Made by a program: the position numbers and the translations under genes. DNA of 64,000 nucleotides from NCBI RefSeq assembly GCF_000026545.1, contig NC_011601.1, one strand, 5' to 3'. Below, in pieces: positions 56,395 to 56,567 of the stretch. Every line of letters starts with the position of its first letter. Position 1 is the stretch's first letter. Below the pieces are notes generated by a model, which was not told the origin of the DNA, ran no database searches, and saw only the letters and a list, made by a program, of their open reading frames with translations. This DNA comes from Escherichia coli O127:H6 str. E2348/69 (GTDB lineage: Bacteria; Pseudomonadota; Gammaproteobacteria; Enterobacterales; Enterobacteriaceae).

Positions 56395-56567
56395 TACTGA
56401 CTTCCGGTTGCTGAAAATGCGGCAACACAGTAAGACGAAAAGTCAGTGAAGAGAACGTTCCCATTACATCTGTGTGATGAAGATCACATAGGGTATGTCT
56501 TCATGGCGAAAAAAAGTGCAAAATTCTTAATAAACAGCCAGTTATAGCTCCGAAAGCGAGTTATTTA

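Follow-up and report, generated by a model that had tools for sequence, protein, structure and literature searches.

In Escherichia coli E2348/69 the genes acrB, tomB, hha, maa and ylaC, followed by pdeB, lie in this order, all on the minus strand according to the RefSeq annotation of the 64-kb stretch of DNA surveyed here (the window, to which all positions refer unless stated otherwise). The maa gene, encoding maltose O-acetyltransferase, occupies 55842..56394 with its ATG at 56394-56392. The co-directional hha gene (56568..56786, minus strand) lies upstream of it and supplies the read-through RNA with which most of this study is concerned; from the end of hha at 56568 to the maa ATG there is a spacer of 173 nt. 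Window positions were converted to MG1655 positions by adding 423,524. RefSeq marks maa of E2348/69 as a 'frameshifted' pseudogene, its frame being broken into two ORFs (133 and 61 aa); the gene of K-12 is whole, with 183 aa. The frameshift was located at a run of C at about 56001-56004, where E2348/69 reads GTCACCCATCGG versus GTCACCATCGG in K-12, one C more. The promoter and the hairpin upstream of the frameshifted gene remain intact, and K-12 and E2348/69 have the same promoter sequence. Because maa is a pseudogene in E2348/69, any control by the hairpin would be without effect at the protein level in this strain. Elsewhere in the window a transposase gene of ISEc13 (IS4-like) was found between an MGMT-family gene and ybaY, at about 51058-52431.

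Nested inverted repeats directly before the maa start had been picked out by eye in an earlier, sequence-only reading of this DNA, and they are indeed present on the minus strand with the sequence given there. The outer stem had been drawn with nine bases; eight form perfect pairs and the ninth, C56448, has no partner. Its 5' arm ACUGACUU (56447-56440, minus strand; ACTGACTT on the DNA) consists of promoter spacer DNA, -27 to -20 from the maa transcription start, and pairs with the 3' arm AAGUCAGU (56403-56396, minus strand), which takes in the 3' portion of the Shine-Dalgarno sequence together with the spacer down to -2 before the start codon. The inner stem joins GUUGC (56426-56422, minus strand; -6 to -2, that is, upstream of the transcription start) to GCAAC (56411-56407, minus strand; +10 to +14 in the maa mRNA). 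Three further pairs, CUG (56430-56428) with CGG (56406-56404), are gained in the minimum-energy fold beside this 5-bp inner stem, and the Shine-Dalgarno sequence GGAAG (56405-56401, minus strand) is wholly paired in the predicted structure. The hairpin of K-12 differs at a single position, an A to G change in the 3' arm (there AGGUCAGU), by which a U-A pair becomes U-G and the Shine-Dalgarno sequence is improved to GGAGG.

Folding, the check proposed in the sequence-only reading, gave a stable structure over the ribosome-binding region, with free energies far from zero. Taken by itself, the 58-nt hairpin has a folding energy of -15.2 kcal/mol (z = -2.79), a value equalled by 2 of 200 shuffles, and a 71-nt segment one of -17.8 kcal/mol (z = -2.2), equalled by 7 of 200. 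The segment from -62 to +9 of maa ranks fourth in stability among the 60 genes annotated in the window (-20.0 kcal/mol against a median of -12.2), and the spacer as a whole (221 nt folded) has no unusual structure (z = +0.73). The hairpin may thus be said to exceed chance moderately in these predictions, at a site that was chosen for its hairpin-like look. Rfam 15, searched in E-value mode over 55000-58000, contains no family matching the hairpin, and all hits elsewhere in that interval fell below the gathering score. Sub-threshold matches (Trp_leader, isrD, isrK and a CRISPR repeat), all far under the gathering score, cluster at 57688-57776, just beyond the stop codon of acrB, in the 544 nt separating this gene from tomB, and probably mark the terminator hairpin of acrB.

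The hha-maa spacer also carries the maa promoter, beginning with a CRP site TGTGATCTTCATCACA (56488-56473, read on the minus strand). Its perfect TGTGA-N6-TCACA core, centred at -60.5, is the sole perfect copy in the 64-kb window, where 0.03 would be expected, and of 27 maa loci of Enterobacteriaceae, 24 conserve the site in the corresponding position. In class I CRP-dependent promoters the consensus CRP site is centred near -61.5. The maa site fits the class I position, and the interval separating it from the -10 box is maintained from genus to genus. A generic promoter and terminator scan missed the maa promoter, whose -35 region is poor, as expected with a CRP-dependent promoter; the only hit of that scan in the spacer, a plus-strand 'terminator-like' site, is actually the CRP palindrome. 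In published work, maa has been named among the new targets of cAMP-CRP by genomic SELEX (PMC3105977), and with RNA polymerase alone no constitutive promoter was found within the hha-maa spacer (PMC3946193).

The CRP site is followed by a palindrome of the LacI/GalR type, GGGAACGTTCTC (56462-56451; -42 to -31), which overlaps the -35 region and is a putative TreR-type operator, and then by the -10 hexamer TACTGT (56432-56427, minus strand). Transcription starts at a G at 56420 on the minus strand, the seventh nucleotide after the -10 box, leaving a leader of 26 nt. This start was predicted from the conserved -10 box before the published data were looked up, and the SMRT-Cappable-seq start of operon b0459, at MG1655 479,944 on the reverse strand (Yan et al., 2018, Supplementary Data 2; PMC6131387), is the identical base. 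The inverted repeat straddles the maa promoter and transcription start.

Orthologous loci were taken from the 13 Enterobacteriaceae among the Maa-protein matches listed and from 12 loci found by exact-protein look-up. The order tomB-hha-maa-ylaC was retained in every aligned Enterobacteriaceae locus, and three conserved blocks were recognized upstream of maa, namely a CRP-type site, a palindrome and a TAnnnT hexamer, the last lying 16-20 nt 3' of the operator in almost all loci. The 12-mer GGGAACGTTCCC occurs exactly in the treR-treB spacer of MG1655 (locus L084, 4248-4259), adjoining a CRP-like half site, and the palindrome of E. coli maa is the same 12-mer with one mismatch. Among 98 loci searched, perfect copies of it precede maa in 15 further loci of Enterobacteriaceae and otherwise occur only in the treR-treB spacer. 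The label 'TreR-type' is based on this match to the palindrome of the treB spacer. Judged by sequence, the distribution suggests that maa may belong, so far unlisted, to the trehalose (TreR) regulon throughout the Enterobacteriaceae. It is absent from the TreR targets given by RegPrecise (8 sites in 8 regulons) and by RegulonDB (where treB and treC are listed), and no paper tying TreR to maa was found in the literature searched.

Two observations on these loci stand apart from the hairpin. In Klebsiella (L087) and Raoultella (L090) a different LacI-type palindrome, TGAAACCGGTTTC, abuts the -10 box about 50 nt 5' of maa in place of GGGAACGTTCCC, in what looks like a change of regulator. The Maa protein itself is 61-72% identical to many proteins of Bacillota (Paenibacillus, Bacillus, Oceanobacillus and others; loci L017-L083), which make up most of the matches listed, and the most distant Enterobacteriaceae orthologues among those matches share 73%, so that the Bacillota proteins are almost as close; these similarities hint at a possible horizontal transfer of Maa.

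The transcription start at 56420 falls in the inner loop, between the arms of the repeat, and the maa mRNA made from it therefore has a 26-nt leader with the 3' arms only, in which the hairpin cannot form. The sequence-only reading had suggested a translation-controlling structure in the 5' UTR of maa, and the suggestion fails for the gene's own transcript on this point, since both 5' arms are absent from it. A control element of that kind, thermometer-like or responsive to a ligand or protein, was attractive in that the stem over the Shine-Dalgarno sequence is predicted to be stable, but the primary mRNA is without the 5' arms, its sequence from the start to +40 (leader and early coding region) is no more stably folded than shuffled versions (z = -0.77), and no Rfam family matches. 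This explanation is contradicted by the position of the start site and is given hardly any weight.

The hairpin is possible solely in RNA that reads through from hha, and such RNA has been recorded. SMRT-Cappable-seq found an hha-maa operon, b0460|b0459, transcribed from a start at 480,424, in addition to a tomB-hha transcript from 480,795 (PMC6131387, Supplementary Data 2), and the RegulonDB operon b0459 was extended accordingly to b0460|b0459 (PMC6131387, Supplementary Data 3). In this read-through RNA, ACUGACUU, CUG and GUUGC would fold back on GCAAC-CGG-AAGUCAGU. The maa Shine-Dalgarno sequence would then be buried, so that the read-through RNA would be poorly translated into Maa, and the synthesis of Maa would be set by the sugar-regulated promoter of maa itself, independently of transcription of hha. 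Untranslated read-through RNA would moreover be exposed to Rho, which fits a bicyclomycin-sensitive region of Rho termination reported inside maa at 479,692 (Rho score 1.40, p = 7e-5; PMC7815308, supplementary file 2).

Accessibility of the ribosome-binding site was expressed as the mean probability of being unpaired over -15 to +3, with -150 to +40 folded as the read-through context. By this measure maa scores 0.14, lower than every other annotated gene of the window (60 genes, median 0.45), and it still comes lowest when the comparison is limited to the 36 genes with an upstream spacer of at least 80 nt (maa and 35 others). Folded from its own start, maa reaches 0.45, which is average for the genes of the window. 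A similar pattern was noticed at ylaC (about 55730-55790), occluded in the read-through context (0.26) and open when a short leader is folded (0.64). Given the ylaC pattern, a predicted difference between own and read-through transcripts may be common among genes with a promoter of their own behind a co-directional gene. On the evidence assembled here we place at about 0.4 the probability that a fold-back like that of IS10 keeps the hha-maa read-through RNA untranslated.

The comparison across genera gave a mixed picture of this fold-back. Promoter-region sequence is predicted to pair with the Shine-Dalgarno sequence or the AUG in Citrobacter (CAUUGCG with CGUAAUG), in Escherichia sp. ESNIH1 (GGCUAUCUC with GAGAUAGCC; shuffle p = 0.001), and in Siccibacter, E. 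cloacae and C. amalonaticus (p = 0.03-0.04); the sequences of the stems are wholly different between genera and the topology recurs. A duplex between the upstream region and the ribosome-binding site was no better than in shuffles in Salmonella, Klebsiella, Raoultella, Kluyvera, Cedecea, Pluralibacter, Lelliottia and Scandinavium. When the 45 nt 5' of the start were matched with -20 to +5, p was below 0.1 in 13 of 27 loci, with these eight genera giving no signal, and the mixed outcome is not counted here as proof. Averaged over 17 genus-level lineages, which are related to one another, read-through accessibility was 0.35 compared with 0.45 in the E. coli background (Mann-Whitney p = 0.013), and the gain on folding from the own transcription start was 0.19 versus 0.11 for the same related lineages and E. 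coli background (p = 0.02). This predicted shift is suggestive only, and part of it may follow from the operator, whose pyrimidine half, UUCCC, is the natural complement of a Shine-Dalgarno sequence. Within the Escherichia alignment 11 of the 16 pairs are invariant, 95% of cells are paired and no compensatory change was seen, E. albertii and E. ruysiae each having lost one or two outer pairs; covariation in Escherichia was set aside as evidence, being uninformative either way without compensatory changes.

These differences between genera bear also on the proposal that the repeat acts as DNA, as a protein site or a cruciform acting on the maa promoter. The 5' arms do occupy the -35/-10 spacer, the -10 box and the start region, which are frequent positions of operators. 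The arms are nevertheless 36-50 bp apart, an atypical geometry for an operator, and the complete divergence of their sequences between genera, with the topology recurring, argues against a sequence-specific protein; the recognisable protein sites of this promoter, the CRP site and the GGGAACGTTCYC palindrome, lie elsewhere. A role at the DNA level is accordingly considered very improbable.

The sequence-only reading had also raised the possibility that the repeat is the end of the hha transcript, and published Term-seq data (Adams et al., 2021; PMC7815308) bear on it. In none of their conditions does a 3' end lie 50 nt or less from the hha stop codon, as might be expected if the tomB-hha message ended at the hairpin, which would stabilise it by ending transcription or by blocking 3'-to-5' exonucleases. 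A 3' end at MG1655 479,917 (56393, minus strand), detected in LB at OD 2.0 only (PMC7815308, supplementary files 1 and 3), falls on the U of the maa AUG, three nt beyond the last pair of the stem, and the Rho termination further inside maa would suit trimming back to the hairpin. The stem is followed by AAUGAGCAC, however, with no U-tract, and the terminator scan called no terminator-like site on the minus strand of the spacer. In LB at OD 0.4 and in M63 the spacer is without 3' ends, that at 479,917 included, and the nearest is at 479,823, 95 nt inside maa (PMC7815308).

The 479,917 end was also tried as proof of an hha mRNA ending at the hairpin and was rejected. In the LB OD 2.0 data a 3' end coincides exactly with the start-codon U in 26 genes, against at most five genes at each of the neighbouring distances (PMC7815308, supplementary file 3). 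Three consecutive genes belong to this class, hha (480,307; window 56783), maa and ylaC (479,250; about 55726), so that both neighbours of maa share the AUG-U position. As one of 26 such ends, that at 479,917 tracks the AUG and not the stem; an explanation for ends on the start-codon U was not found in the text of Adams et al. (2021; PMC7815308). Added to this, a full-length hha-maa RNA exists, and the stems of other genera always overlap the Shine-Dalgarno sequence or the AUG, which would be needless in a mere stabiliser. The case for the hairpin as an end of the hha transcript is weak; a function in defining and stabilising the hha message is regarded as unlikely.

A chance by-product is the explanation that competes most closely with the IS10-like fold-back, and we consider it almost as likely. 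Complementarity between the spacer and the ribosome-binding site may have arisen without any selected function and may persist because the Escherichia species are closely related. The z-scores, only -2.2 to -2.8, would agree with this, as would the ordinary structure of the spacer as a whole, the choice of the site by eye for a hairpin, the lack of covariation in Escherichia and the absence of a comparable duplex from about half of the genera, eight of which gave no signal; the E. coli background of the lineage comparison also tells against the fold-back. What a by-product accounts for less readily, and what the fold-back has in its favour, is that the ribosome-binding site of maa is the most occluded of all 60 genes and of the 36 preceded by a spacer, that the same topology is built from other sequences in Citrobacter, ESNIH1, Siccibacter and C. 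amalonaticus, and that accessibility and the gain from the own start are both shifted at genus level over the 17 lineages.

A wider proposal joins the fold-back to the operator. Under it, an insertion-sequence trick would be at work in an ordinary chromosomal gene: the promoter DNA would double as the anti-Shine-Dalgarno arm, only RNA from the CRP-activated and TreR-type-repressed start would be translated, leakage from hha would be folded shut and passed to Rho, and maa would belong to the TreR regulon. Taken as a whole this is rather doubtful. Earlier publications already cover the locus, the maa start site and CRP binding; a hairpin astride the start site and a treB-type operator before maa appear to be undescribed in the sources searched. 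If the fold-back is true, it would be a simple and general means for a gene to keep control by its own promoter despite co-directional leakage. It would also bear on the 'extended operons' of long-read transcriptomics, as the hha-maa transcript would not imply co-expression of both proteins. The conserved CRP site and treB-type operator suggest in turn a physiological link between the catabolism of trehalose and the poorly understood acetyltransferase Maa. Neither the fold-back nor the link to TreR alters an established picture.

Several known systems resemble parts of this arrangement. With intrinsic terminators and hairpins that stabilise 3' ends it shares a stable stem-loop 3' of a gene and, in one condition, a 3' end three nt further on, but it lacks the U-tract of an intrinsic terminator, and its 3' end is condition-specific and comes from the start-codon class. 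The predicted structure, with its wholly paired Shine-Dalgarno sequence, is like the 5'-UTR hairpins of RNA thermometers and translational operators; unlike these, the maa transcript itself is without the 5' arms, and no Rfam family covers the hairpin.

The treB promoter of E. coli, which drives treBC, is activated by CRP and repressed by TreR. The maa promoter has the same succession of a CRP site, a palindrome and a -10 box. CRP site and operator are separated by 21 nt at treB; at maa the distance is 27 nt in E. coli and in most genera, and 21 nt, as at treB, in Cedecea and Enterobacter sp. R1.

The closest parallel is the fold-back inhibition of IS10/Tn10 (Davis, Simons and Kleckner, 1985), a protection from external promoters in which translation signals are sequestered, with a similar case in IS3 (as cited in PMC13181058). 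Compared with the outline of IS10 given in these sources, maa is a chromosomal sugar acetyltransferase gene and not a transposase gene, and the transcription that reaches it from outside originates in hha, a fixed neighbour; the conservation of its hairpin across genera is patchy, and its fold, like all structures considered here, comes from thermodynamic prediction. The likenesses to the same outline are several. The 3' arm of the maa hairpin covers the ribosome-binding site, with the Shine-Dalgarno sequence and the spacer to -2 paired; the transcription start lies between the arms (5' arms at -27 to -20 and -6 to -2), so that only RNA from outside carries the anti-Shine-Dalgarno arm; and transcripts entering maa from upstream exist, in the hha-maa RNA from 480,424. 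The effect that folding predicts at maa is also that of IS10, a read-through RNA that would remain untranslated.
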